Positions 6,681 through 39,401 of a stretch of 64,000 bases of DNA are shown here, piece after piece (position 1 is the stretch's first letter; each line of letters starts with the position of its first letter). Position numbers and translations under genes: made by a program. Below the pieces are notes generated by a model. It ran no database searches, had not been told where the DNA came from, and saw only the letters and a list, made by a program, of their open reading frames with translations. Source of the stretch: Bacillota bacterium (lineage in GTDB: Bacteria; Bacillota; Limnochordia; DUMW01); contig DUMW01000009.1 of the NCBI GenBank assembly GCA_012839765.1, positions 29,434 to 93,433 of the forward strand, read 5' to 3'.

Positions 6681-6808
6681 ACTAATGTTTTCAAGGAAGG
6701 ACGGGTGCCAGGAGGTGGTAGGGGAAAGGAAATCCATCGGCTAGGTGTGTTTCCCTCGCCCAATTCGCAGGCGGGCAAAGACTAGGAGTAAAGGTGGCAG
6801 AATGCTTT

Positions 6809-8683: not shown

Positions 8684-9976
8684 ATGTTTAAGAAAACTCT
8701 GTTGATCGGACTAATGCTAAGTTTTATCGTCGGTGCCGGTGTGGTGCAAGCTACTGAGAAGATCCATTTGACCATCTGGAGTGACTGGAGTGGAAATATT
8801 CCGATTTTCCAGGAATTGATGAATATCTACATGGAACGGAACCCCCATGTGGAGATCACTTGGGAGTGGTCCTTCGGAGATCACGACAAACTAGTGATGT
8901 CCGTCATTTCCGGCACAGGCCCGGATATTGTTTGCTACGGTTTAGTGCCGGAGCTTATCGAGGATGGCATGTTTGAGCCCTTGGACAAATACTTGGCCAA
9001 CAGTGTGTTAATGGAAGACATTCCTCCCAACCTGTGGCCGAAGACCCAGTGGAAGGGCCAGACCTACGGTGTGCCCGCGATTGAGGGAGGTCCTGGTTGG
9101 GGTCTTTTCTACAACAAGGATCGCTTTGGGCGGGCTGCTTTGCCCACACCGGGTCCCGATGAGGTATTGAGCATCGATGACTTCTTGGCTCTCCACGCTA
9201 AACTGAGCAACGTGGGTCCCGATGGAGTCGTCACCGAGCTGGGGTTCTATCCGCCGGAGACCAATGGCCACCACTACACCCGTTGGGAAGCCTTCTACAA
9301 TGTCAAGGCGGTGGATCTGGTGAACGGCAAGGCTCAGCTGGATCATCCAAGGATGCTAGCTGCTGCGGAAACCCTGATGCGGATCTATGAGATCGGCGGT
9401 GGGCGGCAGGCCATGCTGGAGTTTGTAGGGTCTTCGTCCCTATGGCCCAGCATGCAGTCTCTGTTTGTGACCGGTAAGACGGCGATGATGCATGCCGGGT
9501 ATTGGGCCGTGTCCTCCCTGGAGAGCGGGGGTATGAGCGTGGATGATTACGGCGTGACCTGGTCCCCGAATATCGATGGGCTGAAGGTGCAGAACTACAG
9601 CGGTTGGCAGCTGCTCATCTTGTCCAATTGCGCCCACAAAGAAGAGGCCTTTAAGGTTGTGGAGTTTATCGCCTCCGGCGAAGGGCAGGCTTACATTTTT
9701 GAGAAGCTAAGCTGGCTTGGCGGCATGCCCCGTAGTCTCTTTGATTATGTGGATGTCTACGCCAATCCGCAGATTGCCTGGTTCTTGAACTCTATGTTCA
9801 CCGCAGACAATACCTCAGGTGTGGCGGATCTGCCCAATCCCTACTACAACCTTACGGCCCAGTTGTGGCAGGATGCCTTCTTAAAGATAACCAGCGGAGA
9901 GCAAAGTCCGGTGCAGGCTTTACAGGAGGCCAACCGGTTGTTGCAGTTGGAAATTGATGCTACTTGGGAAAAGTGA
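8684..9976 (+). CDS. ABC transporter extracellular solute-binding protein, family 1 (sugar-binding); no cognate permease genes adjacent
   Basis: ~430 aa with an N-terminal signal peptide (no lipobox Cys). Family-1 SBP-like sequence pattern. Strong RBS AAGGAGG before the ATG. Confidence 0.7.
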   Translation: MFKKTLLIGLMLSFIVGAGVVQATEKIHLTIWSDWSGNIPIFQELMNIYMERNPHVEITWEWSFGDHDKLVMSVISGTGPDIVCYGLVPELIEDGMFEPLDKYLANSVLMEDIPPNLWPKTQWKGQTYGVPAIEGGPGWGLFYNKDRFGRAALPTPGPDEVLSIDDFLALHAKLSNVGPDGVVTELGFYPPETNGHHYTRWEAFYNVKAVDLVNGKAQLDHPRMLAAAETLMRIYEIGGGRQAMLEFVGSSSLWPSMQSLFVTGKTAMMHAGYWAVSSLESGGMSVDDYGVTWSPNIDGLKVQNYSGWQLLILSNCAHKEEAFKVVEFIASGEGQAYIFEKLSWLGGMPRSLFDYVDVYANPQIAWFLNSMFTADNTSGVADLPNPYYNLTAQLWQDAFLKITSGEQSPVQALQEANRLLQLEIDATWEK

Positions 9977-10047
9977 GTTCCGATTGACCTAAGCAGGTTA
10001 ACAGACTCCGAGGAGTCTGTACTGGATAAACCAATAATCGAAGGGAG

Positions 10048-10605
10048 TTGTTGTTGTTGAAGAAGGGTTTAGCGGTGGTAATGGCGGTGTTGTTCCTCGC
10101 GATGGGCAGTGTGGCTTTCGCCTACGACTTTGAGGCGAAGAACAATGTCCTTGGGCCCCACAATGCCTATCACAAGCAGATTAAAATCGAAGCGGACTCC
10201 ACATTTGCCATGGGTTTGGGACCGGAAAACCTGATCGACGGAGACTATAACACCCGTTGGGTCAGTGCGCACTTCAATACGGGACCCAAACCTGGGGAAG
10301 AGTACGTCAGCTGGATCATTGTGGAGCTGCCCCATGCTGAGCGGGTTACCGCCCTGCGGTTCCACACTGGGCTTTCAGGCTACGGCGCTGGTGACCCCAA
10401 TATGATCATCCACTCCTTTGCCTTGGAGTATTGGGACGGCAATGCCTGGCAGGAAGTGGTGGTCATCGAAGGCAATACAGAGAAGGTGGCGGAGGCCGTC
10501 TTCGAGCCGGTGGAAGCCAGCCGGTGGCGTATCCGGGTAATCAATCCCAGCCGGTATGACTGGAGTGTCCGGGCTTACGAGCTGGAGTTGTTCCGGGCTA
10601 ATTGA
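10048..10605 (+). CDS. Small secreted F5/8 type C (discoidin) domain protein
   Basis: Signal peptide (…SVAFA) then NLIDGDYNTRWVS and a terminal …YELELFR, both characteristic of discoidin/F5-8-C domains. Paralogues lie at 10687, 62547 and 63266. Start is TTG (10048-10054) after an AAGGGAG RBS. Confidence 0.7.
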   Translation: MLLLKKGLAVVMAVLFLAMGSVAFAYDFEAKNNVLGPHNAYHKQIKIEADSTFAMGLGPENLIDGDYNTRWVSAHFNTGPKPGEEYVSWIIVELPHAERVTALRFHTGLSGYGAGDPNMIIHSFALEYWDGNAWQEVVVIEGNTEKVAEAVFEPVEASRWRIRVINPSRYDWSVRAYELELFRAN

Positions 10606-10686
10606 GGTTATCACGACTAGTAGTCGCCCACGGCGGCTACTAGTCGTCCCATCTAGAACATAAGCGAGTGGAGGGGGTTACGGTCC

Positions 10687-11256
10687 ATGAAAAGGAACTT
10701 GGTACTGGCTCTAACTTTGTTGTTGCTTGTTAGCGGCTGTATTCTGAGTTCAACTGATCCTGAACCTGACCCAAGTCCTTTGGAGCCTGCGGACAACATC
10801 CTTGGTCCCCACAATCCTTACCACGGGCAGATCATCATCGAAGCCGATTCGGTACTCAATGAGAGAACGGGACCCGAAAACCTTATCGATGGCGATCTGA
10901 ATACCCGTTGGGTGACGGCCCATTTAAACACCGGACCGCAGGAAGGGGAGCCCTACTTGACCTGGGTGACCATCAAGTTGCCCCATCCGGAGAAGGTGCA
11001 CGCCTTAGTGTTCTACACCGGAGTTGCAGAGAGTGGTGCCGGCGACCCCAATATGATCGTCAGGAGCTTCGCGTTAGACTATCGTGATGGAGACACTTGG
11101 CGTGAAGCTTGCTCTGTGGAACTGAACTCAGAACGAAGATGTGAAGTGCGTTTTAAGGCAGTGGAGGCCCAGGAATGGCGTCTGCGGATCACTGATCCTG
11201 GACGATATGATTGGAGTGTCCGGGCCTTTGAGCTAGAGCTGTATCGACAGAAATAG
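10687..11256 (+). CDS. Small F5/8 type C (discoidin) domain lipoprotein
   Basis: Lipobox LLVSGC. Same domain as the 10048 gene (NLIDGDLNTRWVT … FELELYR). Confidence 0.7.
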   Translation: MKRNLVLALTLLLLVSGCILSSTDPEPDPSPLEPADNILGPHNPYHGQIIIEADSVLNERTGPENLIDGDLNTRWVTAHLNTGPQEGEPYLTWVTIKLPHPEKVHALVFYTGVAESGAGDPNMIVRSFALDYRDGDTWREACSVELNSERRCEVRFKAVEAQEWRLRITDPGRYDWSVRAFELELYRQK

Positions 11257-23790: not shown

Positions 23791-24669
23791 GTGTCCTTGA
23801 AAAAACTCTGCAGTCTGCTTGTAATCTTAGCCTTATTCACCGGTTGTATTTACATAGCCACCGACGATGGGCCATACAGGATTTCGGGACGGGTGACCGA
23901 TTCTTGGGGTAAGGGGATTGGTGGTGTCGTCATCAAACTAGGTGAGGAATTCGGCGAGGTTGTGACCGATGCCGACGGCCTGTGGTGTGTGGAGGGGCTA
24001 CATGGTGTGGTGAACGTTGTTCCCTTTAAGGAGGAATGGAGTTTCGAGCCGCCCAGTATCACCGTGGTTGCCGAGAATCACGAGGTGGACTTTGTCGGCT
24101 TCCAACATCTCTATTTCACCGACTTTACCACGGACGTATCGATCCACTGGTATTTAAATGGTCCGGAGATCCTCCCCACTGGGATGAGCTTCGACGGAGG
24201 TTGGGGAACTTACCGGTGGGCCCAACTGACCGGTGAGGCCGCTATCCAGGTTTCAGACGTGATCATCGAGGTGGAAGTGGCGGATATCCGTACCGGAAAC
24301 GAGAATGCCTTTGTGGAAATCGCCGGACGGACCGATGATCCTTTGGAAGCGGGTGAACGTACCAGCGGGGTGGCCCTGAGGGTTTACGGCAAGGGTTCCA
24401 CCAATGCGAGAATGGTGCTATACGAGGACGGGGTGGAGATTGGTTCGGTGCAGACGGAACTGTTTCACTGGTAACATGAGACCATTTTTGTGCTGCGGTT
24501 GATGCTATATGGAAATCTTGCCATCGGTACGGTGACCCGTGCCTCCGACGGAGCCAGTTGGGAAGTGCGGGGGACCCTTACCAGTACCCTCGGTCCCGGA
24601 AACGTGAGACTGCAAGGGCGGGCGTACAACGAAGGACCGTTGATCACGAAAGTGGAGGTGAAGCGGTAG
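23791..24669 (+). pseudogene. Lipoprotein with an unassigned ~190 aa beta-sandwich-like domain (family A), interrupted by an in-frame TAA at 24472-24474
   Basis: Lipobox ALFTGC. The sequence is collinear with paralogue 29911..30537 through …VQTELFHW, then TAA, then 65 further in-frame codons that remain homologous to the paralogue (…GPGNVRLQGRAYNEGPLITKVEVKR). Confidence 0.55.
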
Positions 24670-24912: not shown

Positions 24913-26727
24913 ATGGGCAGATACTGGGTTCGGATGCTGGTGGTATTGCTGTGGGTCAACCTTTTGCTAATCTCTCCATCGCCGCTAGTTAGGGGTAACG
25001 AAAAGGATTACGGAAACGGGGTTGTCCCAAGTTACCACACTGATTTCTCCCTTGATGTGTCGTCAGATTGGGTGCTGGTGGGACCAACGATCCACGTCGG
25101 TACAGGAATGGATTTCAGCGGGGGCTGGGGGAAAGTGCGCTGGGCCCAGTTAGATCTGGGGATCCCGTTGGTTGATGTGGCCCTCTGGGCGGAGGTGACC
25201 GGGATTGGCACAGGAAATCCGAATGCCTTTGTGGAGATTGGTGCCCGGACCCAGGATGCACACCAGGAGGGCGAGCGCACTAGCGGTGTCTACCTGCGGG
25301 TTTATGGTGCCGGTGGACCCAACGCGAGAATCGCCTTGTATGATGCGGGGAAACTCATAGCCGAGAAGGATTCCACCCTCTTTTCCCGTGATGCGGTCTT
25401 TACCATGACCCTGATCCTACAAGGCAACACTGCTAGGGCTATCGTCGTGGGTCAAAACGCATCGGATTCCCGCTGGGAGTTGACGGGGATAGTAACCCGT
25501 GCCCTTGAACCAGGAAGTGTGAGGTTGCAGGGCTGTGCCTATACCGGGGGACCGGTTATTGCCCAGTTCAAACTGCTCCCGGACCCGACCGAATCTCCAA
25601 AGGTGGGAGGGGAGCTGGTGCCCGCCGTATACAAACCGTATGTAAGTGCCATCGACACTGAGCGCCCCATCATCGTGGCCCATACGGACAAACCGTGTAC
25701 GTTGGATTTTTTCTTGGTTGTCGATTCCCAAAAGGTCTATCAGGCAAGTTCTGTAGGCCAGCACCATTATTTTCCCATCCCTGATGCGGTGTGGATGGTG
25801 CCGGGTACATACCAGTACACTCTTCGAATTGGAGAGACTGAGGTGGGCACCTATCAATTCCTAGTGCCTGAAAAGCAGCAGGACACTTTCGCCTTCGCGG
25901 TGGTGGGTGATGCGCAAAACGCGTATTCCCCTGAACGAAGGGCGAAGGTGATGGGTGCTTTGGCTGATTTTGATCCGCAGTTTATCCTTCACACCGGGGA
26001 TCTGCACGCGGGGGTTGGTGACGGTTGGGACTTGTTCGGCCGGGATTGGTGGCTCAACTTCTTTGCCCCCATGTCGTCATACCAAGCTGCGGTGCCCTTC
26101 TACCCCGTCCTTGGCAATCATGATGATGAGCTTGTCGGTCAACGGGAGTCCTTTATCCAAGCTTTTCCCCAATTGCCCATGGCAGGATGTTACAGTTTCA
26201 AGTTTGGCCAGGCGGCTTTCTTCTTTTTGGATATCCAAAATCAGATCCGGGAGTTCTTCGACAAAGGCCACGACCAATGGTTGCGGGCGGAAGTGGGGAA
26301 ATATCCGGATGTTCTGTGGCGGATCGTGGTTTTCCACGTGCCACCTTGGAGCGGTGGCCATCGGGGAGAGAACCAGTGGACCGTAGGAAGGCGAGAAGAA
26401 CTGCTAGAGATTCTGCAGGAACTGGATGTCCATTTGGTGTTTTGTGGCCACGATCACAATTACCAAAGGTCAAGGCCCCTCAGCTTAGCTGACTCCCCGT
26501 ACCGTCCGGTGCAGTTCGTCATTACAGGTCTCAGCGGCGCGAATTACTACGATGCACAGCCAAGGGAATACCTCGCTCGAGTGGTGAACCGCCAGGATCA
26601 CTTTTGTCTGGTTGAAGTGGCCCGTGAGGAAATCCGCGTGAGGGTGGTGACACCCGCCGGTGAGGAGATTGACTTTTTTCAGGTGGAACAGGACACAGTA
26701 GACGATGTCTATTTCGTTGAGCCCTAG
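24913..26727 (+). CDS. Secreted calcineurin-like metallophosphoesterase fused to an N-terminal family-A domain
   Basis: Signal peptide; N-domain homologous to the 23791 and 29911 genes (DFSLDVSSDWVLVGP…GGWGKVRWAQL…NAFVEIGARTQD…GERTSGVYLRVYG). C-terminal phosphoesterase motifs GDAQN, GDLHAG, GNHD and GHDHNYQR. Confidence 0.65.
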   Translation: MGRYWVRMLVVLLWVNLLLISPSPLVRGNEKDYGNGVVPSYHTDFSLDVSSDWVLVGPTIHVGTGMDFSGGWGKVRWAQLDLGIPLVDVALWAEVTGIGTGNPNAFVEIGARTQDAHQEGERTSGVYLRVYGAGGPNARIALYDAGKLIAEKDSTLFSRDAVFTMTLILQGNTARAIVVGQNASDSRWELTGIVTRALEPGSVRLQGCAYTGGPVIAQFKLLPDPTESPKVGGELVPAVYKPYVSAIDTERPIIVAHTDKPCTLDFFLVVDSQKVYQASSVGQHHYFPIPDAVWMVPGTYQYTLRIGETEVGTYQFLVPEKQQDTFAFAVVGDAQNAYSPERRAKVMGALADFDPQFILHTGDLHAGVGDGWDLFGRDWWLNFFAPMSSYQAAVPFYPVLGNHDDELVGQRESFIQAFPQLPMAGCYSFKFGQAAFFFLDIQNQIREFFDKGHDQWLRAEVGKYPDVLWRIVVFHVPPWSGGHRGENQWTVGRREELLEILQELDVHLVFCGHDHNYQRSRPLSLADSPYRPVQFVITGLSGANYYDAQPREYLARVVNRQDHFCLVEVAREEIRVRVVTPAGEEIDFFQVEQDTVDDVYFVEP

Positions 26728-26889
26728 ATACTGCGAAGATATTGCGGGGAATTGAGGTCGCGAATTGGAGAGACACCAGGACCCGCTCTGTGCAAGGAAC
26801 GGCAAGGGCGAGGTGGTGTTGGGCGGAAACTATGTATAGATCATTTTATACTAAAACTGAATAGTTCCAATAGTGAAGGATACAAGAAA

Positions 26890-29361
26890 GTGTTGGTGAT
26901 AAAAGTGAACAAATGGCAATTAATAAAATATGGTTTGTTGGTGCTGTGGATGGGAGTTTCGTTCATGTTTGTGGAAGTGGAGGCGGCTATGGTGCAGCAG
27001 GATGTGATAAGACAGTCCAGTAGTACCGCCTGTTACTTTGCCCCGGGGGAAGGCTCTATTCCGGGGGTGAAGGTGATGATCGAATCGGATCGTTGTATCT
27101 CCATCAATATGGTTAATGTGCAGCTTAGTCCCGAGGAGGTGGAGCGAAATCATTGGTACACCTTGACTGCGCAGGAGGATGAGGCTTACCGGCAACAGGT
27201 GCACCCACAGTCCGTATCTTTCCGGCGCCGGGTTTCCGATGTGTCACTGCGGACCAATCGGGTGGAAATCGGCAGTCATATTTTCTTATTATTCGACGAG
27301 CCCCTGCGAGAGGGAGTTACATATGAGCTGACTGTCTCGGCAGATTTCCCAGTTGCTATTCAGCCGGTGAAGATCTTGTTTTTACCCGAGGCCAATGTGA
27401 CCGAAAACATCCGGGTGAACCAAGTGGGGTATTTCCCTCAGATGCCGAAATATGCCATTGTGGGGCAATATATTGGCAGCCTTGGTCCCTTACCCTTGGA
27501 GCTGGAGGAGTTCTTCCTGATCCGGGAGTCCGACGGCAAGGCGGTATACAAGGGCCAGGCGGAGCTTCTTCGGGATCATGACCCCCACACGGGACAGAAA
27601 CTATACAAATTGGACTTCAGTGGTTTTACTACCCCGGGAACCTACCGGGTACTCGTGCTTCAAGTGGGCGTATCCTTTCCCTTCCGCATTGCCGATGATG
27701 TCCTGAACCATGTGGGTGCCACTCTCCTGCGTGGACTGGTGACGCAACGTTGCGGCTATGACGGTTTGACCGAAGATTTCACCAGGTTTGCCCGACCCGC
27801 CTGCCACACCGATGATGCGTACTTGGATCCAGCGTCTTTGTTGGCGGTGACTCCGGCTAATCCGCCCCACTTGAGCGCTAACTACGACCAGATTCGGCAG
27901 ATTCCGACCACCAAGGGCCACCACGATGCGGGGGATTATGGCAAATATGTGGTGAATGGCTGCACCTTCGTCTACAGCCTGCTGCAGATGCTGTCCTTGA
28001 ACTCCAATCTGGCTGGTGATGACTATGGTTTGCCCTTCAGCCAAAACGGAATTCCCGATGTGCTGGAGGAAGTGAAGTGGGAACTAGACTGGCTGGAGAC
28101 CATGCAGGACCCCGATGATGGCGGTGTCTTTTCCATTGTGAAACCTAGGGGATTTGGGTACGAGTCGGATTTGCCGGCGGTGGTGGGCAATCGGTGGATT
28201 TATCCCAAGGATACGGTGACCACGGCCACTTTTGCTGCTGCCTTGGCCCATGCTGCCCGTCATCCATTAATCAAGCAGTATTATCCAGAGGATGCTGAGC
28301 GTTACCTGGAGAAGGCGCAGTTTGCCTGGTCCTACCTTGCAGCCACCGATCATTACCCGGAGTTTCATCACTATGGAGCCATCTGGGGTGATGCTGATGA
28401 TCGGGTATGGGCGGCGGTGGAGCTTTACCTGACTACGGGGAAGGAAGTCTACCACGAGTATTTCCTACTGAACCACCGACCTGAGGAACGACGCTGGGGT
28501 TGGGTACCTTTGTTTGCGAGCTACGGCAACGCCACCCGTTCCTATGTCCTGGATCAGGGTCAGCCCAAGGATGAACGGATGCTCCAACGTTGTCTCAACG
28601 AGCTGCGACGGACCGCGGAGACCTTCGTACGAAATACCGTCCAAAGGGGTTACGGATTTTCCATGGATAACGAGCCCCTTCGACACGGGAGCTACGGCTG
28701 GTATTTCCCTACCTCTGAACATGCTTATGATCTGCTTCTGGCCTACGAGGTTTTCGGAGACAGCCGGTATCTGGAGACGGCCCTAGCCAATATGAACTAC
28801 GAGTTGGGAGTTAACGCCCAATCCTATGTACAGATCACCGGATTGGGCTGGAAACGGGTAATGGATCTGGTGGACCAGCAGCATCGTTATGGTGATTTCT
28901 TTGAGCCCCGGGTGGGCCTACCCCTGGGTGCGGGCAGCAGTGGGATTTACCACATTGCCCATCTGGGTGACCTGGAACCCCATACCTACCCGGCCAACTA
29001 TCCCTTGCTGGCCCGGTTCTACGAAGGGTGGAATGTGCAGTCCGAGTTTACCCTCGACGCCTGGGCCCGGATCACTGCCAGTTATCTATACTTTTACAAG
29101 GACAAGGGTACGGTCAATCAGCCGCCGACCCTTGAGGTGGAGTACACTGTGGATCCCAAAGTGCCTGGTCTGATACATTTCCACGCCAAAGCTTCCGACC
29201 CCGATGGAGAGGTGGTGTCCCTGTTCTGGGACTTTGACGATGAAGCCTGGGCCCTTGGGTCAGAGGTAAGCCATCAGTTTAGCCGTCCGAGCCGGAACTA
29301 TCGTGTTTTGTCCGCGCTGTGGATAACGATGGTGGATACACCTATCAATACTTGGAGGTAA
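26890..29361 (+). CDS. GH9-family glycosidase with N-terminal Ig-like (CelD_N) domain and C-terminal PKD domain; frame broken near 29300
   Basis: IRVNQVGYFPQMPKYAIV (CelD_N-like) and GHHDAGDYGKY (GH9 DAGD signature). C-terminal PKD-like sequence DPDGEVVSLFWDFDDEAW…. Homology continues in another frame (RAVDNDGGYTYQY…) into the 29319 ORF. The start is uncertain (GTG at 26890 or 26905). Confidence 0.6.
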   Translation: MLVIKVNKWQLIKYGLLVLWMGVSFMFVEVEAAMVQQDVIRQSSSTACYFAPGEGSIPGVKVMIESDRCISINMVNVQLSPEEVERNHWYTLTAQEDEAYRQQVHPQSVSFRRRVSDVSLRTNRVEIGSHIFLLFDEPLREGVTYELTVSADFPVAIQPVKILFLPEANVTENIRVNQVGYFPQMPKYAIVGQYIGSLGPLPLELEEFFLIRESDGKAVYKGQAELLRDHDPHTGQKLYKLDFSGFTTPGTYRVLVLQVGVSFPFRIADDVLNHVGATLLRGLVTQRCGYDGLTEDFTRFARPACHTDDAYLDPASLLAVTPANPPHLSANYDQIRQIPTTKGHHDAGDYGKYVVNGCTFVYSLLQMLSLNSNLAGDDYGLPFSQNGIPDVLEEVKWELDWLETMQDPDDGGVFSIVKPRGFGYESDLPAVVGNRWIYPKDTVTTATFAAALAHAARHPLIKQYYPEDAERYLEKAQFAWSYLAATDHYPEFHHYGAIWGDADDRVWAAVELYLTTGKEVYHEYFLLNHRPEERRWGWVPLFASYGNATRSYVLDQGQPKDERMLQRCLNELRRTAETFVRNTVQRGYGFSMDNEPLRHGSYGWYFPTSEHAYDLLLAYEVFGDSRYLETALANMNYELGVNAQSYVQITGLGWKRVMDLVDQQHRYGDFFEPRVGLPLGAGSSGIYHIAHLGDLEPHTYPANYPLLARFYEGWNVQSEFTLDAWARITASYLYFYKDKGTVNQPPTLEVEYTVDPKVPGLIHFHAKASDPDGEVVSLFWDFDDEAWALGSEVSHQFSRPSRNYRVLSALWITMVDTPINTWR

Positions 29362-29816
29362 ATCCCTCGACGGAGGAAAACACCGGACCCTTTGTGGTCT
29401 ACGAGGACCAGTTTGATACCAGCGCGGGGTTGATGCCCCAGGGGGAAGCGGGCGTGGAGATTGTGGATGGTAAGGCCGTCCTTACAGGCAGGTCCTTAGA
29501 TCCTGACTATGTGGTGATCGGACCGGTGAAAGTGGACTTTGATCAGGGTTTAACCATTGAATTTGTGGTTTCCGAAGTGACCCCTGGTGCTCATTGGAAT
29601 TTTAACATTGGGTTCAAAGAAAACTGGTGGAACGGACCCCACATGAGGCCCTACGGTACTGATATGATCTTCTTCCCCCGGCACGTGATCAGTAGCATGA
29701 ACCAACTGGCCAGCAACCAGGTGGGCGGTCTGAGTGGTGAACAGACCCTGTGGTTCACCTTTGATGTACGGAACGGTTCCATCACTGTGGACTATCTGAG
29801 AATAACGGCCGAATAG
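29319..29816 (+). CDS. C-terminal continuation of the GH9 protein: end of the PKD domain plus one copy of an unassigned ~140 aa 'family B' domain
   Basis: Reading upstream in this frame gives …SVRAVDNDGGYTYQYLEV, a typical PKD strand. The family-B domain matches both repeats of gene 32128..33069 (GPVKVDFDQGLTIEFVVSEVTPGAHWNFNIGFKENWWNGPHMRPYGTDMIF…FDVRNGSITVD). Confidence 0.5.
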   Translation: MDNDGGYTYQYLEVNPSTEENTGPFVVYEDQFDTSAGLMPQGEAGVEIVDGKAVLTGRSLDPDYVVIGPVKVDFDQGLTIEFVVSEVTPGAHWNFNIGFKENWWNGPHMRPYGTDMIFFPRHVISSMNQLASNQVGGLSGEQTLWFTFDVRNGSITVDYLRITAE

Positions 29817-29910
29817 GCTGTAGGTTGATTCTCTATGGCGGTATTGTGGGTCCGAGTATACCGGGAAGGGCTTTATCCGTTTAGTGACTATTATGGAAAG
29901 GAGATTTCCC

Positions 29911-30537
29911 ATGCACCGAGTGGTCCCGTTGGTCATGCTGCTATTAGTGCTTCCTTGCTGGGTTGCGGCGGAAGAACTGATCTACTTCACTGACTTCTCT
30001 AGCGATGTCTCCGCAGATTGGTATTTGAACGGCCCAGAGATTTCCCGCGAGGGTATGAGCTTTGATGGCGGCTGGGGTGTTTACCGGTGGGCTCAACTGA
30101 GGGAAGGGCTTGTGAAACTCAGTGACGTGACGATTGAGGTGGAGGTTGTGGATATCCGCACAGGTAATGAAAACGCCTTCGTGGAGATTGCGGGGAGGAC
30201 CCATGATCCCTTGCTGGCTGGGGAACGGACCAGTGGAGTGGCGGTACGGGTCTTCGGGAAAGGCCCTAGCAATGCAAAGATGGTGCTATATGACAACGGT
30301 GTGGAGATTGCCACCGTGCAGACGGAACTGTTTCATTGGCAGTATGAGAATACCTTTGTCCTGTCTCTGGTGTTGAGTGGTAATAAGGCAATGGCCACGG
30401 TGACCCGACTTCGGGATGGGGCCAGTTGGCAAGTGAGTGGGACTATCACTAAAAGCCTTGGTCCAGGAAATGTGCGTATTCAAGGGCGAGCCTACAACGA
30501 AGGGCCGCTCGTAACCAAAGTGACGGTGAGACAGTAG
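29911..30537 (+). CDS. Secreted protein consisting of the unassigned family-A domain (full-length paralogue of 23791)
   Basis: Signal peptide MHRVVPLVMLLLVLPCWVAAEE, followed by FTDFSSDVSADWYLNGPEISREGMSFDGGWGVYRWAQL…NAFVEIAGRTHDPLLAGERTSGVAVRVFG…. AAGGAG RBS before ATG 29911. Confidence 0.6.
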   Translation: MHRVVPLVMLLLVLPCWVAAEELIYFTDFSSDVSADWYLNGPEISREGMSFDGGWGVYRWAQLREGLVKLSDVTIEVEVVDIRTGNENAFVEIAGRTHDPLLAGERTSGVAVRVFGKGPSNAKMVLYDNGVEIATVQTELFHWQYENTFVLSLVLSGNKAMATVTRLRDGASWQVSGTITKSLGPGNVRIQGRAYNEGPLVTKVTVRQ

Positions 30538-30830
30538 GCGACGTACTTGTTCCCGGTCAGGGGTAAGGCGGAACCCCTGACCATCCTCAGACTACTGCTC
30601 TGAGGATGGTTGGGGAAAGGGTTGGTGCAATGAAGGAAGACGGTGTTTCGGGTGGAGGCGCACACAGGTCGTGGCGGTGAGGAAAAATAGTGCTTCATCG
30701 AGTGTCAAAGGTCTTTTTCGTAGTTATCATACCAAAATACAAGGGGTAATCATCCCATGGGTAGGTTGGTTTGCAGGCTAGTTCTGGTGTTTAAAGGCGA
30801 AGAGTCAAAATGAAAAAGGAGGGCTAATCC

Positions 30831-32084
30831 ATGTTCAAGCGGTTATTCTACATCGGGTTGTTGGGTATGGTGGTGCTGGCTGTCGTGCCGGTGATGGCCG
30901 AACAGATGGAGATCACCGTTTTGGAAAATGTGCTGGAGGGGTTGGAACCGGAGGAGATCGTTGCGGAGTTTGAGGCCCTGTATCCGCAAATTAAGGTCAA
31001 TTTAGTCCAAAGCCCAGATATGAACCTCCAGGAAACCTTGACCACCTGGTTGCTGGGTGGAATTGCTCCGGACATCTTTGTGGGTTGGCGGGTCTTTCCC
31101 ATTGAGTGGGCTCTGAATGGCTTTCTGTTGGAACTGGATCCGTATATTGAGAAATATATGACTGATGAGGACATTGCCGAATACGCGCCGGCCCAGTACC
31201 AGTTCATCAATGTGCAGGGTAAGCAGTATGGGATTCCTAAGTACATGGGAACCGTAGCCACTTATTACAACCGCCGGTTGTTTGCCGAGGCAGGTATCCC
31301 CGAGCCTACCCGGGACACCTGGACCTGGGAGACTCTGCGGAATACGGCCATGAAACTGACTGTCCGAGACGGAATGGAGATCAAACGATATGGCTTTTTC
31401 ACCCTTTATAACTATGATCGGATAAACTACTGGATCCGGCAAGGCGGTGGGTACATTCAACGTCCTGATAGACCTAACGAGGTAGCCATCAACGAACCGG
31501 AGGCCTTGGCAGCATTGGAATTCCTCTACCGGTTGGCCCATGAGGACCAGGTGTACCTGATAGACTGGTGGCCTGCGGATGAAAAGTTTGCGGGAGAACA
31601 TTTGGCAATCTGGGAAGAGGGTGTTTGGAGTCTGAAGCGGATTTGTGACACCGGCATGGATCCCAGTCATATCGGTATTTGTGAGCTGGCGGTGGGACCG
31701 GGGGGAAGAGCCTCTTTGGTAAACAATGATGTCTTTGTGGTCAATTCCGGTGCTAAACATCCTGAAGCGGCCTTCCTGTTCTTGCGCTTCATCACTAGTC
31801 CCGAGATCAATGCGCGGCGGGCCCAAAGTGGATTGGTGCCAGCCACCCGTTCCACTGCTGGATCTTGGATCCAGTACGCGGCGGATACCTTTAAGCTGCC
31901 CGCACAGCACCTGATGTCCTTCATTTACGCGGCAGATTACGCGTATACGGCACCAATCTTCAACAATCAGGGTCTAGTGGACCAATATTTCAAGGAGATC
32001 TGCGATCGGATCTTTGTCTTTGGTGAGTCACCAACGGGGGTGATCAATTCCGTAATCTCTGCCCTCAATGCTATTGTCAAGTGA
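30831..32084 (+). CDS. ABC transporter extracellular solute-binding protein, family 1 (sugar-binding), orphan
   Basis: Signal peptide (no lipobox Cys). ~417 aa with a family-1 SBP sequence pattern. No permease or ATPase genes follow. Confidence 0.65.
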   Translation: MFKRLFYIGLLGMVVLAVVPVMAEQMEITVLENVLEGLEPEEIVAEFEALYPQIKVNLVQSPDMNLQETLTTWLLGGIAPDIFVGWRVFPIEWALNGFLLELDPYIEKYMTDEDIAEYAPAQYQFINVQGKQYGIPKYMGTVATYYNRRLFAEAGIPEPTRDTWTWETLRNTAMKLTVRDGMEIKRYGFFTLYNYDRINYWIRQGGGYIQRPDRPNEVAINEPEALAALEFLYRLAHEDQVYLIDWWPADEKFAGEHLAIWEEGVWSLKRICDTGMDPSHIGICELAVGPGGRASLVNNDVFVVNSGAKHPEAAFLFLRFITSPEINARRAQSGLVPATRSTAGSWIQYAADTFKLPAQHLMSFIYAADYAYTAPIFNNQGLVDQYFKEICDRIFVFGESPTGVINSVISALNAIVK

Positions 32085-32127
32085 TGGCGATAAGAGAATC
32101 GATGGCTTGGACGAAAGGAGACTTCCT

Positions 32128-33069
32128 ATGCGTAAACTTGTGGTTTTGGTCTTACTCGTAGTGGCACTCTCGGGGTGGTGCCGGGCTGCGGAACCGGTGG
32201 TAGTTTTTGAGGAAACCTTTTCCTCTACCAAGGGATGGGGAACTGATCACGGGGGCACTGTTGAGGTGGTGGACCACAAAGGTGTGTTTGGGGGAGGGGC
32301 GGATAAGGAAGGTACGATCTTCACCGTGGCACCGATCAGGGTCGACTTGGATGAGGGGTTGACCTTTGAGGTGGTGGTTTCCGAGGTGGAACCGGGTGCC
32401 CAATGGCGGATCATGATGGGAGCCGGGGAAGGCTGGTGGTCCGCCCCTAATTTCCACGTGGATACCTGGCGTCCCTCCACCGAACCGGAGGAAAGGTCTG
32501 TGGACATTACCGCTTTGGCTGCGGAGGTCGGCCTTTCCGGTCCCCAGGACCTTTGGATCGTGTTTTGGGTGAAAGACGGGCGGATTACTGTGGAACAGTT
32601 GCGACTGATCAGTCGCGAACCGAAGCCGGTGGCTTCCAAGGATCCGGAGCTGGTCTTTGAGCAAGACTTCGTCTCTTCCTTGGGTGTGTCCGCCTATGAT
32701 GGGGCCGAGTACCGAGTGGAACAGCAGAAGGGGATTATGAAGAATTCGAGTATGGATCCGGCCTATGTGGTCTTTGGTCCTGTCCTTGTTGATCTGGATG
32801 AGGAACTGACCCTGGATTATAGTATTGTCCACATTACTCCGGGGGCCATGTGGAACCTTAATATTGGCTATAAAGAACAGTGGTGGCAGGGACCTCACCT
32901 GCGACCCTATGGCACAGATATGATCTTCAGCCTACGGAGTGGCTCGGTGAACCTCTCGACATTGGCTAGAAAAGAGGGTCTTGCCGGTGAGCAACGTCTC
33001 TATTTTGTCTTCGATGTACGTAACGGCGAAATTACTATAGATAGTTTTCGGATCCTTAAAAACCAATGA
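32128..33069 (+). CDS. Secreted protein made of two tandem copies of the unassigned family-B domain
   Basis: Signal peptide MRKLVVLVLLVVALSGWCRAAEP. The two ~140 aa repeats share the pattern GPV/I-VDLDEGLT-E-VVSEV-PGA-W…W…FDVRNG-IT-D with each other and with the GH9 C-terminus. Confidence 0.6.
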   Translation: MRKLVVLVLLVVALSGWCRAAEPVVVFEETFSSTKGWGTDHGGTVEVVDHKGVFGGGADKEGTIFTVAPIRVDLDEGLTFEVVVSEVEPGAQWRIMMGAGEGWWSAPNFHVDTWRPSTEPEERSVDITALAAEVGLSGPQDLWIVFWVKDGRITVEQLRLISREPKPVASKDPELVFEQDFVSSLGVSAYDGAEYRVEQQKGIMKNSSMDPAYVVFGPVLVDLDEELTLDYSIVHITPGAMWNLNIGYKEQWWQGPHLRPYGTDMIFSLRSGSVNLSTLARKEGLAGEQRLYFVFDVRNGEITIDSFRILKNQ

Positions 33070-33122
33070 GAGAGAAGGGGAGGGTTTCTCCCCTTCTCTC
33101 TACAGCAGGGGAGGCCGCAGGG

Positions 33123-35294
33123 ATGAAGACTGAGTTGCGCAATCTGAAGGGAAGGGTTGTCATCTATGTGGATGGGCATCCCTACCATGGGATATTTTGC
33201 TCCAGTTCCGCCCAACACGTGGACAACTTCTTGGACGCGGGCTTTCAAGTGATTGATACCCATCCCGGCACACCTTTGGGCTGGCTCGATCTGGATACCT
33301 TTGATTATTCCACTACCGACCGGAAAATTCGTTCCTACTTGGAGAAGAAGCATGATGCTCTACTCATTGTTCGGTTTTGGTTAGGCTACGACGACCTTTC
33401 CCAACCGGGTCACTGGTGGTTGAAGAGATTTCCCCAGGACTTGACAGTCACCTACCATGGTTCAACACGCCCTAGCTTTCCTACCTTTGCTTCACAGCAA
33501 TGGCAAAGGGCTGCAGCTCGTGCGTTGCATAACGTGATTAGCTATCTTGAGGAGAAATACTCCGATAGAATATTTGCCTATGTACCGGGGGGAGGACCGT
33601 GCGGCGAGTGGTTCCACTGGTTTACCTATTGGCTGGAGTCTAACCAGGATCCAGATGACTACAGTGAACCTATGCGTAGAGGCTTTGCGGAGTACTTGGC
33701 GGATCTGTACCAGGGGAACATCGAGGCCTTGAACCATAGCTGGCATACCACTTTTGGGTCCTTCGACGAGATCACCCTTCCTACACCGAAACAACGCACC
33801 ACTCCCCTGTGGGGTAGTCTACGAGATCCGTACCGGGAACGTTTTGTCCTGGATTTTTACCAATATTACAATGGTCTGGTAGCCGATGTTTTGATTCAAT
33901 GGAGTAAGGCGGCCAAAGAAGCCACGAAGTTTCAAAAACTGGTTTTTGTCTTTTATGGTTATCAATGGGTGTCCAGCGCACGGCACAGTCTGGCTCGGTC
34001 CGGGCACCTGGATTTAGCCCGGATTCTCCAGTGTGACTTCATCGATGGCATTGTAGCCCCGTACATTTATGACTGCCGTAAGCTTGGCGGGGTGGTCTCC
34101 TCCCAGACCGTGCCGGGTTCAGTTAGGCAGGGAAAAAAGCTCTTGATTAACGAACTAGATTTGGTCACCCACCGGGGCCAGGGGTGGATGTATCCGGCCA
34201 AGCAGCCTTCCACTGCCCAGGAGACCGTGGAGATCATGAAACGGGATCTGGCCTATAGTCTAGCTCAGGGAGCTGCCTGTTGGTTCATGGATCTCCACGG
34301 AGGCATGTTCGACGATCCGGAGCTCATCGCTGGCTTGCGCCAGGTGCGGGAGGTGGGGGAAGAACTGTGGCTGAAGGTGGGAGAACCCCAGGGGGAAGTG
34401 GCGGTCATCCTTCACGAACAGGCCAGTTTGTACTTCGGGGAGGGAGAACCCTTCTTGGCGCCCCTATTTAACTTGTTCAAGGTTTGGGAACTGGAGCGGA
34501 TGGGACTGCCCTTTGTGGATTTGGTCCTCTCCAGTCTGGCGGACCATCCTAAAGACTACAAAGTATACATCATCCCCAATGCCGTCTTCTTGTCGGATGA
34601 AGAACGGCGGTTGATTAAGGAAAGGTGTTGTACCAAAGGAAACACTGTCATTTGGTGCTATGCTGCAGGGGTCCTGGATCGGGAACATTTCTCCATTGCC
34701 CTGATGGAGGAATTGACAGGCATGAGGCTGGGTTATACGATGGAGCCGGGGGAGCTTACCGTCAGCCTTACTAACGAAGTCCACCCCTATTTAGAAGGTC
34801 TGTCACCCGGATTGACCTATGGGACCAAAGGTTCCTATCTTTGTCCAGAGGAGATCAGGGAGCAGACACTCCTGAATATCTATCCGGAGCAGTTTTCCAT
34901 CGCCCCCCGGATCTGGGTGACCGACGATGCGGTCACGGTGTTGGGGACCATAGAGGATCTGCGAAAACCGGGTCTGGCCGTGAAAAGGATGCCCGGCTGG
35001 ATTTCGGTGTTCTCCGCTGCTCCCATGATCCCCAAGGAGATTCTGCGGAATATTGCCAAAGCCGCAGGCTGTCATGTGTATACGGAGTTTCCAGGACAAC
35101 TGATGGCCGCGGAGAACCTGGTGGGTTTCTATGCCCACAAGACCGGTCTCTGCCGGATTCATCTCCCTATTTTGGCCCGCGTTACCGATGCCTTTACCAG
35201 GAAGGTCATCCACGATGGCACCAAGGAAGTGGTCTTGCCGGTAAAGGAGAATACCACCACTTTGTTATATCTGGAAAAGCTGTTAGAATCCTAG
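33123..35294 (+). CDS. Putative glycoside hydrolase, GH42-like three-domain architecture (beta-galactosidase family-like); family uncertain
   Basis: ~720 aa. The central segment KDYKVYIIPNAVFLSDEERRLIKERCCTKGNTVIWCYAAGVLD resembles the GH42 trimerisation (class-I glutamine-amidotransferase-like) domain. ATG 33123 follows a GGGAGG RBS. Confidence 0.4.
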   Translation: MKTELRNLKGRVVIYVDGHPYHGIFCSSSAQHVDNFLDAGFQVIDTHPGTPLGWLDLDTFDYSTTDRKIRSYLEKKHDALLIVRFWLGYDDLSQPGHWWLKRFPQDLTVTYHGSTRPSFPTFASQQWQRAAARALHNVISYLEEKYSDRIFAYVPGGGPCGEWFHWFTYWLESNQDPDDYSEPMRRGFAEYLADLYQGNIEALNHSWHTTFGSFDEITLPTPKQRTTPLWGSLRDPYRERFVLDFYQYYNGLVADVLIQWSKAAKEATKFQKLVFVFYGYQWVSSARHSLARSGHLDLARILQCDFIDGIVAPYIYDCRKLGGVVSSQTVPGSVRQGKKLLINELDLVTHRGQGWMYPAKQPSTAQETVEIMKRDLAYSLAQGAACWFMDLHGGMFDDPELIAGLRQVREVGEELWLKVGEPQGEVAVILHEQASLYFGEGEPFLAPLFNLFKVWELERMGLPFVDLVLSSLADHPKDYKVYIIPNAVFLSDEERRLIKERCCTKGNTVIWCYAAGVLDREHFSIALMEELTGMRLGYTMEPGELTVSLTNEVHPYLEGLSPGLTYGTKGSYLCPEEIREQTLLNIYPEQFSIAPRIWVTDDAVTVLGTIEDLRKPGLAVKRMPGWISVFSAAPMIPKEILRNIAKAAGCHVYTEFPGQLMAAENLVGFYAHKTGLCRIHLPILARVTDAFTRKVIHDGTKEVVLPVKENTTTLLYLEKLLES

Positions 35295-35340
35295 GTTCCT
35301 GAGTTCTCGCGAGTCTGTTGTGAGAAGGGAGGGCGGAGGT

Positions 35341-37167
35341 ATGGAGCGCCTATGTCGGCTTATCCTACATATCAGGGATGAGGAAGGAGCGCCCCGTCTT
35401 GCCCGCTGCTATGTTTGGTCTTCGGGGGAACGTCCGAAAGTGGGGGAAGGGGATCCCGACAACAACCGGTGTCCCGGCGTGTTTTTTGGTAGTACAATCC
35501 AGGTTTTCATTCCCTTGGATGTACCGGTGCAGGTGGAGGTGTACCACGGCTTTAATTGGAGTGTTTGGCGGAAGACGTTTCAAACCGCCGAAGAGGAACT
35601 GGAAATGACAGTCACCCTCCAGAGGTTCTGGGAACACCCCCGTTGGGTCTGTGGTGAAAGCCATTCCCACATTGCCCGGGGGGAAGGGAATCTTGGTCGC
35701 TCTGGGTCCTTTTCCTGGGTAAGGACCCTGTGTCTGGCTGACGGATTGGACTACTACCAGCCAGGATATCCCTGGCCCGGGTATAGTCCCCAGGATAACG
35801 AAGCCGTTGATCTGTCCCGCGTTAAGGAGAAACTAGAAAGGCTCAGTGATGAGGCTCTCCTTTTGGCACCGGGTTGTGAGTTTCCCAAAACACGTTTTGG
35901 TCACTTGTGCTGGGTAAACTTGGAAGGTATCCGTCTCACCGTTGCTGAATGTTTCGATGCCTCCTGGGAAGACTGGCTCTTCAACAGTCGACCCGGTCAA
36001 ACCCCTAGGGATTTCCCCTATGGACTACTATCCCTAGCGGAGATAATTGCAAAGCACCGCCAGGGGAGAGAGTTCTGTTTCTTTGCCCATCCCACCAGTT
36101 GGTGGTGGTATGGAGATAAATTTGTTCCCAACATCGCAGCGGAGCTGCCCTACCTGACCATGGCGGGACCCCTCTACGACGGGCTCGTGGTCATGGGTTA
36201 CCAGGCCGATCACCTCTATTACCAGAACTTGTGGTTCCACCTTTTGAACCTGGGTTATCGCATTACGGGAGTGGCAGAGGTGGATGCGGTCTGGGGGCGG
36301 AAGGATTTCGATCTGCCGGGCAAATACCGCAACTACACCTTTTCCTCCAAGCGAACCATGGAAGAGATTGCCCTGGGACTGAGGCAGGGGCGTAACCTGG
36401 TCACCTCTGGTCCCTTTGTGGGCTTATCAGCCAATGGCCGACACTTGCCCGGGGACCTTATACCCGAGGGCGATTATGAGTTTTCCATTACCTGTTGGTC
36501 CAGTGGAGATCCGCAGGAACGACTCAGTTATGTGGTTTTGTATCGAAACGGTAGGCCCTTCAGGGTATGGGATCTTAGGAGCAAGATTGTTCGTTACTTT
36601 GAAGAGAAGGTCACTGTCCGCGAGGACTCTCCTGCCTGGTACTTGGTGAAATGCTATGGTTCCGAGGCTCCGGAGGAGGCTACATTGGATCTGATGAGAT
36701 TTCTGCCGGAGCATCCGGGTTACATCCCAAAACGGGTAAGCCAGGTAGCCCTGACCAATCCCATCTATATTCGGCCGGTAGGACACCCTAGTCCCCAAGC
36801 CTACAGTGCCAAGGTGCGGGGATTCGTCACCGACCGGCACGAAAGACCTCTTTCCGGATGGGTATGGATCCTAGATCCCGTGGATCAGGAGAGTCGGAGG
36901 GAGCAATTCACTAGCGGTGAATTCTGCATCCAGGTTCCTCTAACGGCTTACGTAGAAGTGCAGGTGGATGGTTACGTCTCCCAGCGACGTTCCGTTCGTT
37001 TTGATTGTCCAGCCTTGGTGGAGACCATCGAGTCTGTGTATATGGGGAAGTTTAACCAAGAGAGGCGCTGGGCGCCGGGGCAGCTTTTGTTTGAACACCT
37101 GGGATGGGATGTGATTGAAAAGGCCCTGGGGGAGATTACGTGGCTTTTCAGATTGGAGGAAGGTTGA
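35341..37167 (+). CDS. Hypothetical protein, possible PHP/CehA-like metal-dependent hydrolase
   Basis: CGESHSHIARG (HxH metal-binding-like motif). 608 aa with no other recognisable signature. The stop overlaps the start of the next gene (ATGA). Confidence 0.35.
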   Translation: MERLCRLILHIRDEEGAPRLARCYVWSSGERPKVGEGDPDNNRCPGVFFGSTIQVFIPLDVPVQVEVYHGFNWSVWRKTFQTAEEELEMTVTLQRFWEHPRWVCGESHSHIARGEGNLGRSGSFSWVRTLCLADGLDYYQPGYPWPGYSPQDNEAVDLSRVKEKLERLSDEALLLAPGCEFPKTRFGHLCWVNLEGIRLTVAECFDASWEDWLFNSRPGQTPRDFPYGLLSLAEIIAKHRQGREFCFFAHPTSWWWYGDKFVPNIAAELPYLTMAGPLYDGLVVMGYQADHLYYQNLWFHLLNLGYRITGVAEVDAVWGRKDFDLPGKYRNYTFSSKRTMEEIALGLRQGRNLVTSGPFVGLSANGRHLPGDLIPEGDYEFSITCWSSGDPQERLSYVVLYRNGRPFRVWDLRSKIVRYFEEKVTVREDSPAWYLVKCYGSEAPEEATLDLMRFLPEHPGYIPKRVSQVALTNPIYIRPVGHPSPQAYSAKVRGFVTDRHERPLSGWVWILDPVDQESRREQFTSGEFCIQVPLTAYVEVQVDGYVSQRRSVRFDCPALVETIESVYMGKFNQERRWAPGQLLFEHLGWDVIEKALGEITWLFRLEEG

Positions 37168-37925: not shown

Positions 37926-38156
37926 GCCCCGTCGCGCGTAAGGAGCGATGCACGAGAAAGGTGGCACTGCAAAAAGTCTCGTGCCACACGCGATCTCATG
38001 CTGCAGAAGGTTCCAGTAGAGAACTACTGTGGTTTGCTATACGGACTGCCACTCGGGCACAAAGGTGCTGAATCGAAGGACTTGGCAAATCTAGGATTAG
38101 GTGGTAATATACTGATTGTGCCGGAAAGCCTCCTGGATTTTGCAGGAGGTGTCTTC

Positions 38157-39401
38157 ATGACGAAACTATTCATCTTTTTGCTCATCATTTCTCTCTTTGC
38201 ACCTGTTGATGCTTCCAGTCTGACTTTGGACTGGGACTATGTCCTTCGAACATCGGTGAAGGAAACCGTTACCATGTCTCAGTTGAGACTGGCCGGGTCC
38301 GGTGCCCTAAACTGGGAAACTATGTTTTATTACCTTCCTGGTGAGCTGGGCGTGGATCGGGCCTCCCTTGATTTCTCCCTGCACGGTATTGAACATCGCA
38401 TCGCATGGGGACATCCCTTGCCCCACTTCCAAGGTCGCATGTCCATTGTAGGGGGCAATGTGCAACCGGGAAAAGGTCTTAGTTATACGGTGAAAGGCAA
38501 AGAGGGTCCCTGGAGTGCCACGGGAGTGGTCCTGTGGGGATCGGTCTTCGATGTGTGGGCTGCTCAGTTGAAATACACCCAAAAACCCTGGCAGCTTTTG
38601 CTTACGGGTTGTCTGAATTCCGTAGATTATCCGGGGGAGAAACAGCATATGTATGTCGTAGAGGGCCAGACGTCCCTGGGTAATTTCACTTTGCAAGGGG
38701 CGCTGGGCATGAGCCCGGGTTCCTCACCGTCCTATGCCCGGTATGCCCAGGTGGACTACCGCGGGAGTCAGGCGCGGCTGCTCCTAAGCTACCGGAATAT
38801 CGATGGCGACTTTGTTACTCCGGCCAAGTCTTCCTTTTCCTTGGGGCGGGGCCGGAAGGGTTGGGAATTGGGTAGCACTGTCTCCATCGGGCCGTGGGCC
38901 TTTGTGGAAGTGACCGGCAGTGACCTGACCAATCTTTCAGGTCAAAGGCAGTATCAGTGGGAGTTGGTCAGCGGTCTGTCCTTGGGGGAGCAAACCTTGC
39001 GGGTGGGCAAAGGTTGGAACCACAAGTATGAGGAATGGGTGGTCTATGGACTGGTCGGACCGCAATATGAAGTGCGTCTTACCCAAGGAGAAGAGAGATG
39101 GCAAGGCCGGTTGCAACTGGAACTTACTCCGCAACTGACGGTACGTAGCAGCTACGATACCGGGCTTTCGGCGGTGCGGGTCCAGGGTGATCTGGCCTTA
39201 GATGGGGAAACCCGGTTGCGGGGACTGGTAAGGTACCGGCATGATCAGCAAAAACTGCAATATTACGCTAGTCTGAGCAAGACTGTAGGTCCTTTGCAGG
39301 TGGAACTGGATTGGGGCACTTGGGATCAAGGACGCTTGGATGCCTACTGGCAGCACCCTAGTGCCTTGGGGGTTAAGGTGGTATATCATCGGGCTTGGTA
39401 G
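38157..39401 (+). CDS. Secreted hypothetical protein with amphipathic beta-strand pattern and C-terminal aromatic residue (OMP/beta-barrel-like)
   Basis: Signal peptide MTKLFIFLLIISLFAPVDASS. Alternating hydrophobic/polar stretches (LQLELTPQLTVRSSYD, RLRGLVRYRHD). Ends …VVYHRAW. GCAGGAGG RBS. Confidence 0.45.
   Translation: MTKLFIFLLIISLFAPVDASSLTLDWDYVLRTSVKETVTMSQLRLAGSGALNWETMFYYLPGELGVDRASLDFSLHGIEHRIAWGHPLPHFQGRMSIVGGNVQPGKGLSYTVKGKEGPWSATGVVLWGSVFDVWAAQLKYTQKPWQLLLTGCLNSVDYPGEKQHMYVVEGQTSLGNFTLQGALGMSPGSSPSYARYAQVDYRGSQARLLLSYRNIDGDFVTPAKSSFSLGRGRKGWELGSTVSIGPWAFVEVTGSDLTNLSGQRQYQWELVSGLSLGEQTLRVGKGWNHKYEEWVVYGLVGPQYEVRLTQGEERWQGRLQLELTPQLTVRSSYDTGLSAVRVQGDLALDGETRLRGLVRYRHDQQKLQYYASLSKTVGPLQVELDWGTWDQGRLDAYWQHPSALGVKVVYHRAW

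Follow-up and report, generated by a model that had tools for sequence, protein, structure and literature searches.

Surface glycan-binding proteins of the SusE/F type in Bacteroidota are built of binding domains only and are encoded next to transporters. On glycoside hydrolases (GH), the beta-jelly-roll carbohydrate-binding modules (CBMs) include CBM4, CBM22, CBM11, CBM15, CBM86 and CBM84, and among the closest known systems to the domain described here is the CBM84 found on the GH9 xanthanase of Paenibacillus nanensis (PDB 6fhn). In GH9 xanthanases the terminal module alone, either CBM84 or CBM66, is exchanged on a conserved scaffold, and this module binds the substrate and raises the activity of the enzyme (PMC11002231). 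We analysed a stretch of 64,000 nucleotides from a Bacillota metagenome-assembled genome (MAG; assembly GCA_012839765.1, contig DUMW01000009.1, positions 29,434 to 93,433), which is called the window below. All positions are counted from its first letter, and the GH9, SBP (solute-binding protein), B and stem-loop features described between 26890 and 33101 are on the + strand. The window holds a domain of about 140 residues, named B, in three copies, one of them linked to a GH9 enzyme and two of them in tandem in a secreted protein of 313 amino acids. As B appears to be a divergent branch of an accessory-domain family that has a CBM-type fold and no annotation, we consider it a plausible candidate for a new CBM family within a fold class that is already known, with carbohydrate binding as the predicted and rather likely function.

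An earlier reading, made from the sequence only, had claimed that the GH9 C-terminal piece and both halves of the gene at 32128-33069 share one pattern, and had named the loss of this pattern under proper alignment as evidence against the claim. In our three-way alignment of copy 1 (29364/29388-29813) with the two tandem copies the pattern held and the earlier motif was reproduced, with 34 invariant columns over ~140 residues and the consensus GPVxVDLDxGLT...EVxPGAxW...ExWW...GLSGxQxL...ITxDxxRI. Based on BLASTP the 165-aa open reading frame (ORF) carrying copy 1 was 45% identical to the C-terminal half of the 313-aa protein (E 1e-47) and 37% identical to its N-terminal half (E 2e-26). When each copy was used as a tblastn query against the whole window no fourth copy was found, the next matches having E-values of at least 0.07. 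The B repeat is therefore genuine, far beyond chance. The tandem-B protein is encoded at 32128..33069 (ORF map, alignment, BLASTP and start site), and its ATG at 32128 stands 8 nt downstream of AAGGAG. By inspection its N-terminus is signal-peptide-like (MRKLVVLVLLVVALSGWCRA/AEP; 32128-32190), and it is followed by copy 2 (32191-32610) and, after the linker SREPKPVASKD, by copy 3 (within 32611-33066), both of which were placed by alignment and BLASTP. No lipobox or anchor was seen on this protein. An identical protein (P0001/HHV43209.1) is annotated as 'hypothetical protein'.

Neither Pfam nor NCBIfam nor the PDB sequence searches gave a family for B, which bears out the sequence-only reading that this is not a named CBM; the match to an existing CBM or domain of unknown function (DUF) with a known function, which would have spoken against that reading, did not turn up in any of the three. 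In Pfam there was no match for the 313-aa protein, and none of the B copies matched Malectin at E <= 1. The single sub-threshold Pfam match was to the Diels-Alderase C-terminal domain (DA_C, PF22903; 20.9 bits vs a cut-off of 27), and as it lay below the gathering threshold and concerned one of the three copies only, it was treated as chance. Profile searches of all PDB chain sequences (E <= 10) gave no CBM and no other credible relative of B, and no significant sequence similarity to the named beta-jelly-roll CBM families (among them CBM4, 6, 9, 11, 15, 16, 22, 29, 84 and 86) was detected in Pfam or among the PDB sequences. A search of 5.8 billion protein clusters returned only the own cluster of the 313-aa protein, from biogas/anaerobic-digester samples. 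Scans with the B profile found no relative in the GTDB representative genomes and two contigs only in the JGI metagenomes, both of them from the same species. B in the strict sense has therefore been seen in one species only, and no description of the domain was found in the literature.

With the profile of the three B copies as query, an exhaustive search of 1.84 billion representatives by HMMER turned up remote relatives of B. There were seven matches, each summed from several weak per-domain matches. The top match (P0009, with 28 Calx-beta-like repeats) and P0015 (PPC repeats) were rejected as relatives, as their E-values resulted from summed per-domain scores of 3-10 bits, and two further matches were multi-malectin proteins. 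P0011, a GxGYxYP putative hydrolase, and P0014, a protein of 2592 aa with F5/8 type C and SLH domains, share a repeat of ~125-130 aa which has no Pfam model and matches B in constant register, and which we call X. The comparison of B with seven X repeats gave an hhalign probability of 96.3% (E 1.5e-9, 124 columns). With concatenated X repeats a word-based search retrieved 24 proteins, and an iterated local hidden Markov model (HMM) recovered 59 X domains in 25 proteins; against the alignment of these 59 domains the probability for B was 97.5% (E 8.5e-12). When an X-only HMM was run on the six-frame ORFs of the window, the top two ranks went, in this order, to the tandem-B protein (E 1.4e-11) and to the GH9 C-terminal ORF (E 5.5e-3), followed by an ORF with E 0.58. 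On these profile comparisons B is remotely homologous to X, over its full length and reciprocally.

B and X are alike in the F-x(4)-W start, in V-D-L-D-x-x-P-x-L and E-V-x-x-G-A-x-W, and in the G-(W/L)-(S/T)-G-x-(K/Q)-x-(F/L) that precedes the last two strands, and both are associated with glycan-degrading proteins and loci. However, the identity between B and the X repeats is only 13-22%. In addition, B carries an inserted loop of ~12 residues with E-x-W-W that is missing from X, and B is attached to a GH9 enzyme whereas no X domain is. The nearly invariant Trp of X in T-G-W-(S/T)-G is replaced by Leu in all three B copies (G-L-(S/A)-G), and because of this change in the signature motif B is regarded as a divergent branch and not as a typical X member. 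X is present in 1-6 copies per protein, on the N- or the C-terminal side of putative hydrolase regions of the GxGYxYP or six-hairpin-like type. Other domains in such proteins are F5/8 type C, fn3, SLH and type IX secretion system (T9SS) sorting domains and, by inspection, a dockerin-like C-terminal segment in P0019. These co-occurring domains imply that X is spread over several bacterial phyla. One X protein is encoded within a canonical SusC/SusD locus, in which there is also a hybrid two-component regulator. Another is encoded directly after the gene of a solute-binding protein (SBP), in a locus with ATP-binding cassette (ABC) permeases and GH2. Synteny of the window with the X loci L089 (10001-13177) and L090 (10001-13192) was rejected, since only generic SBP and GH2 similarity was seen. 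The X carriers (P0011, P0014 and P0016-P0038) include a putative hydrolase region, so far uncharacterised, that shows the motif GESLPSRKAQTAW and has neither a Pfam model nor a PDB sequence relative. The PDB sequence search gave no match with P0018 and P0031, and with P0011 it gave the GxGYxYP hydrolase 3sgg only, outside the X repeats. No solved or characterised relative of B or X was found by sequence.

The fold of B was predicted with AlphaFold2 on an alignment of 10 sequences. The model of copy 3 as an isolated domain (predicted local distance difference test, pLDDT, 92.3; predicted TM score, pTM, 0.85) is a sandwich of 10 beta-strands with one short helix, and it is predicted to be a beta-jelly roll of the CBM-type fold class. 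A single-sequence model of the 313-aa protein was discarded (pLDDT 47). The nearest solved structures were overwhelmingly CBMs, with a porphyran-binding CBM, CBM4 (3k4z, 3p6b), CBM22, CBM11 and CBM29 among the top matches, together with a hyaluronan-binding module, CBM15, CBM86 and CBM16. Foldseek was in agreement and placed CBM22 at TM 0.6. In comparison to the beta-jelly-roll CBMs of glycoside hydrolases named above, the identity of B is only 4-15%, and unlike them B has a long Trp-Trp loop of its own.

The position of B at the GH9 C-terminus, as proposed in the sequence-only reading, stood for the species but not for the reading frame of the window, in which a 1-nt correction is needed. As read in the window, the GH9 gene is truncated by a frameshift (26890..29361, with the start of the gene called in contig L001, where 4762 corresponds to 26890; the ORF itself spans 26752-29361). 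It encodes a signal-peptide-like N-terminus, an extra N-terminal region, a CelD_N Ig-like domain (about 27400-27657; Pfam CelD_N, E 4.6e-17), the GH9 catalytic domain (about 27730-28863; Pfam Glyco_hydro_9, E 4.6e-40) and, from about 29164 on, the beginning of a PKD domain (Pfam PKD_4, E 5.8e-6). The 165-aa ORF (29319..29816; ORF map, alignment and BLASTP) overlaps the GH9 ORF by 43 nt in a different frame and contains the remainder of the PKD domain, followed by the linker NPSTEENTG and by B copy 1, which correspond to residues ~830-975 of the intact GH9 protein of 975 aa. The frame is broken inside the PKD domain at a run of four T (T4; 29306..29309).

Of the six contigs from other assemblies that encode the identical 313-aa protein, four span the GH9-B region. 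They share about 99.76% identity with the window, and over the aligned ~20 kb the T run is the sole indel. The run is T5 in L001-L004 and L007, five other assemblies of this species, where it stands within GTGTTTTTGTCC and reads ...NYRVFVRAVDNDGGYTYQYLEV..., which is a normal PKD motif. The T5 version encodes one protein of 975 aa with the signal peptide, the N-terminal region, CelD_N, GH9, PKD, linker and B. In these five assemblies B is a contiguous module of a carbohydrate-active enzyme, C-terminal to GH9-PKD, so the GH9-B fusion is true for the species and broken in the window. The T4 break could be an assembly error or a real strain mutation by which the B module is lost. Programmed frameshifting at the T run was rejected, as the other assemblies are simply in frame with T5. 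Elsewhere in the window an in-frame TAA (24472-24474), which is CAA in three other contigs (L001-L003), shortens a lipoprotein of another repeat family (family A, see below) from 292 to 227 aa, and with the T4 run this makes two disruptive differences within 5 kb in the window MAG.

The closest solved relatives of the GH9 enzyme are CelD (1clc, E 3e-46) and the xyloglucanase BoGH9A (6dht, E 1e-39). Its closest GTDB homologues (41-42% identity) belong to Planctomycetota and other phyla of the Planctomycetota-Verrucomicrobiota-Chlamydiota (PVC) group, and the relatives in the loci L009-L017 (match regions around 6001-8400; 31-42% identity) belong to Planctomycetota, Kiritimatiellota and Lentisphaerota. 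These homologues keep the CelD_N-GH9-PKD arrangement but end in a different module of ~200 aa which is weakly Laminin_G_3-like. The sequence-only reading had raised the point that GH9 homologues in other genomes might carry the same C-terminal module; the closest carry a different one, and B or X was encoded in none of the 80 GH9 loci examined. Because the relatives from PVC phyla share CelD_N-GH9-PKD and differ at the C-terminus, the comparison suggests horizontal transfer of the GH9 scaffold with exchange of the terminal module. Exchange of this type is the pattern of the GH9 xanthanases.

The gene upstream of tandem-B encodes the SBP of a sugar ABC transporter (30831..32084; Pfam SBP_bac_1, E 6e-31), which is labelled 'sugar ABC transporter substrate-binding protein' in the source annotation. 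Only 43 nt separate the end of this gene from tandem-B, no terminator-like site was seen between the two, and judged from this arrangement they are probably co-transcribed. Both genes are part of a glycan-utilisation cluster with two LacI-type regulators, two SBPs, GH116, a major facilitator superfamily (MFS) transporter, GH9, a GH42-like gene and GH2, on a segment that is recognised as Bacillota chromosome by the presence of dipicolinate synthase DpaA and RNase J. Upstream, the gene of the second SBP (8684-9976) is followed by genes for two stand-alone F5/8 type C (discoidin) proteins, both small and secreted (the whole at 8684-11256), one at 10048-10605 with a signal peptide and one at 10687-11256 with a signal peptide and an LVSGC lipobox. 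This pair mirrors the layout of SBP and tandem-B, with a recognised binding-type domain in the place of B.

As compared to SusE/F and to stand-alone F5/8 type C/CBM32-like proteins, the tandem-B protein is likewise secreted and would consist of two binding-type domains only, and like SusE/F-type proteins it is encoded next to a transporter, here immediately downstream of the gene for the substrate-binding component, in a glycan-utilisation cluster. The analogy does not extend to sequence, as there is no sequence relation to these proteins, and the host, a Bacillota MAG, has an ABC-type and not a SusC/D-type system. We propose only tentatively, and with clearly less confidence than the CBM reading itself, that B and X together found a new CBM family with a new ligand specificity and that secreted proteins of binding domains only, encoded next to SBPs, are a Gram-positive counterpart of SusE/F that feeds ABC importers.

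A perfect 14-bp stem-loop (33069..33101; dG -31.6 kcal/mol, z -3.3) stands in front of the GH42-like gene and has as its first base the last one of the tandem-B stop codon. Since it has no T-tract on the + strand its role can only be suggested, and it may act as a 3' stabiliser of the mRNA, as an attenuating element or as a partial terminator before the downstream enzyme genes. Downstream of tandem-B (33066-37167) a protein of 742/723 aa with a partial GH42-like match and a protein of 615/608 aa without a match are encoded. Both of these large proteins are essentially uncharacterised, and the 742/723-aa protein has no PDB sequence relative.

In copy 3 the long Trp-Trp loop of B (KEQWWQGPHLRPYGTDMIFSL; 32872..32934) lies between strands 7 and 8 of the model according to the AlphaFold2 secondary structure. 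It carries the E-x-W-W motif, which reads ENWW and EGWW in copies 1 and 2, respectively, with WW invariant in all three copies. Over 35 columns (LTxExVVSEVxPGAxWxxxxGxxExWW) B aligned with bacterial malectin repeats at an hhalign probability of 89-91%, PGAxWxxxxG(F/Y)xExWW in B corresponding to PGAxYxVxLxFAExWW in bacterial malectins (malectin/CBM57, PF11721). The profile of the bacterial repeats in turn aligns FAE-x-W-W to FAEVYF of Xenopus malectin, in which chain positions 93 and 94 are Y116 and F117 (the offset of +23 was confirmed by Y44/Y67 and Y66/Y89). The aromatic pair of B thus stands at the position of Y116/F117, which are among the residues proposed to contact diglucose (PMC7783096). 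Together with the two multi-malectin proteins in the HMMER search (E about 1e-5), this could indicate that B is a very divergent malectin-type (CBM57) domain, which we consider improbable: only 35 columns align, and there is no Pfam match. An extension of the malectin link to X was rejected, the hhalign probability being 9%. The likeness is therefore local and specific to B, and it was used to nominate the Trp-Trp loop as a candidate ligand-contact site and not to classify B as CBM57. Probably a single structural motif was retained here or arose by convergence.

Carbohydrate binding, which the sequence-only reading had proposed for B, is supported by the fold, the remote homology, the architecture, the terminal-module exchange and the genomic context: the jelly-roll model is nearest to CBMs, B is homologous to X, the terminal module of the GH9 enzyme appears to have been exchanged, and the layout of SBP and tandem-B has its parallel in the SBP and F5/8 type C genes. 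The same beta-sandwich could instead have a non-glycan role, as a spacer, in oligomerisation or protein docking (of the tandem-B protein with the B of GH9 or with the SBP), or as an anchor to an envelope polymer of the own cell. The structure lists also hold protein-binding jelly rolls (the Eph ligand-binding domain, LBD, and MAM), the GH9 and tandem-B translations have no recognisable anchoring domain (no SLH or sortase motif), and one domain occurring both on an enzyme and in a protein made of this domain only could fit a homotypic assembly system. However, the top structural neighbours are CBMs and not docking modules. Anchoring is not the role shared by the X relatives either, as these are found in proteins already equipped with an SLH or T9SS-tail anchor. 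Furthermore, 1-6 copies in variable position relative to the enzyme domain is the usual pattern of CBMs, and a protein of anchor or spacer domains only would have no obvious purpose. We regard such a role as unlikely, though less so than the assignment to CBM57. The least probable of the readings considered, and a very improbable one, is that B is itself an enzyme, a glycosidase or lyase formed by a small jelly-roll domain. Jelly-roll enzymes exist, GH11 structures are found low in the Foldseek list, and the D of V-D-L-D is nearly invariant across B and X. However, B has about 130 residues as compared to 217-219 in the GH11 chains of that list, no acidic pair is conserved across B and X, the invariant positions being Trp and Gly, and the best structural matches are non-catalytic modules.

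According to the preferred reading, B would be an accessory domain without catalytic function, about 130-140 residues long and folded as a beta-jelly roll. It would be a lineage-specific divergent branch of X, which in several phyla is appended both to cell-surface proteins and to putative glycoside hydrolases. Binding of carbohydrate would be its likeliest role. At the end of the secreted CelD-type GH9 enzyme B would hold the enzyme on a substrate of the beta-glucan type, and the tandem-B protein would capture glycans outside the cell alongside the SBP transporter, with which it may cooperate, the E-x-W-W loop that is specific to B serving as the putative contact site. Confirmation of binding would make B and X a new CBM family. 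A domain that neither Pfam nor NCBIfam detects, although dozens of large putative glycoside hydrolases carry it and some of these belong to polysaccharide-utilisation loci, would thereby gain a function, and there would be a handle on the substrates of those uncharacterised enzymes. The tandem-B protein next to the SBP could also demonstrate extracellular glycan capture by a Bacillota organism of biogas reactors. For the annotation of carbohydrate-active enzymes the advance would be incremental, and it would represent neither a new principle nor a new kind of system.

The window contains a separate repeat of ~185 aa (family A) at 24100-24660, 25024-25575 and 29974-30534, carried by two small secreted or lipoproteins and by the N-terminus of a metallophosphatase. 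Family A had no match in Pfam or NCBIfam, and kinship with B was ruled out (hhalign probability 0.1%), a comparison that also served as control for those made with B. A secreted protein of 467 aa encoded at 37998-39401 gave only a weak match to a Gram-negative porin (E 3.5e-4, below threshold), and in related contigs its gene is followed by a PRC-barrel gene. Such a porin-like protein is odd for Bacillota and may hint at a diderm envelope. Nearly all genes of the window (1-64000) are on the + strand and the cumulative GC skew climbs monotonically throughout, which fits one replichore with a strong leading-strand gene bias.

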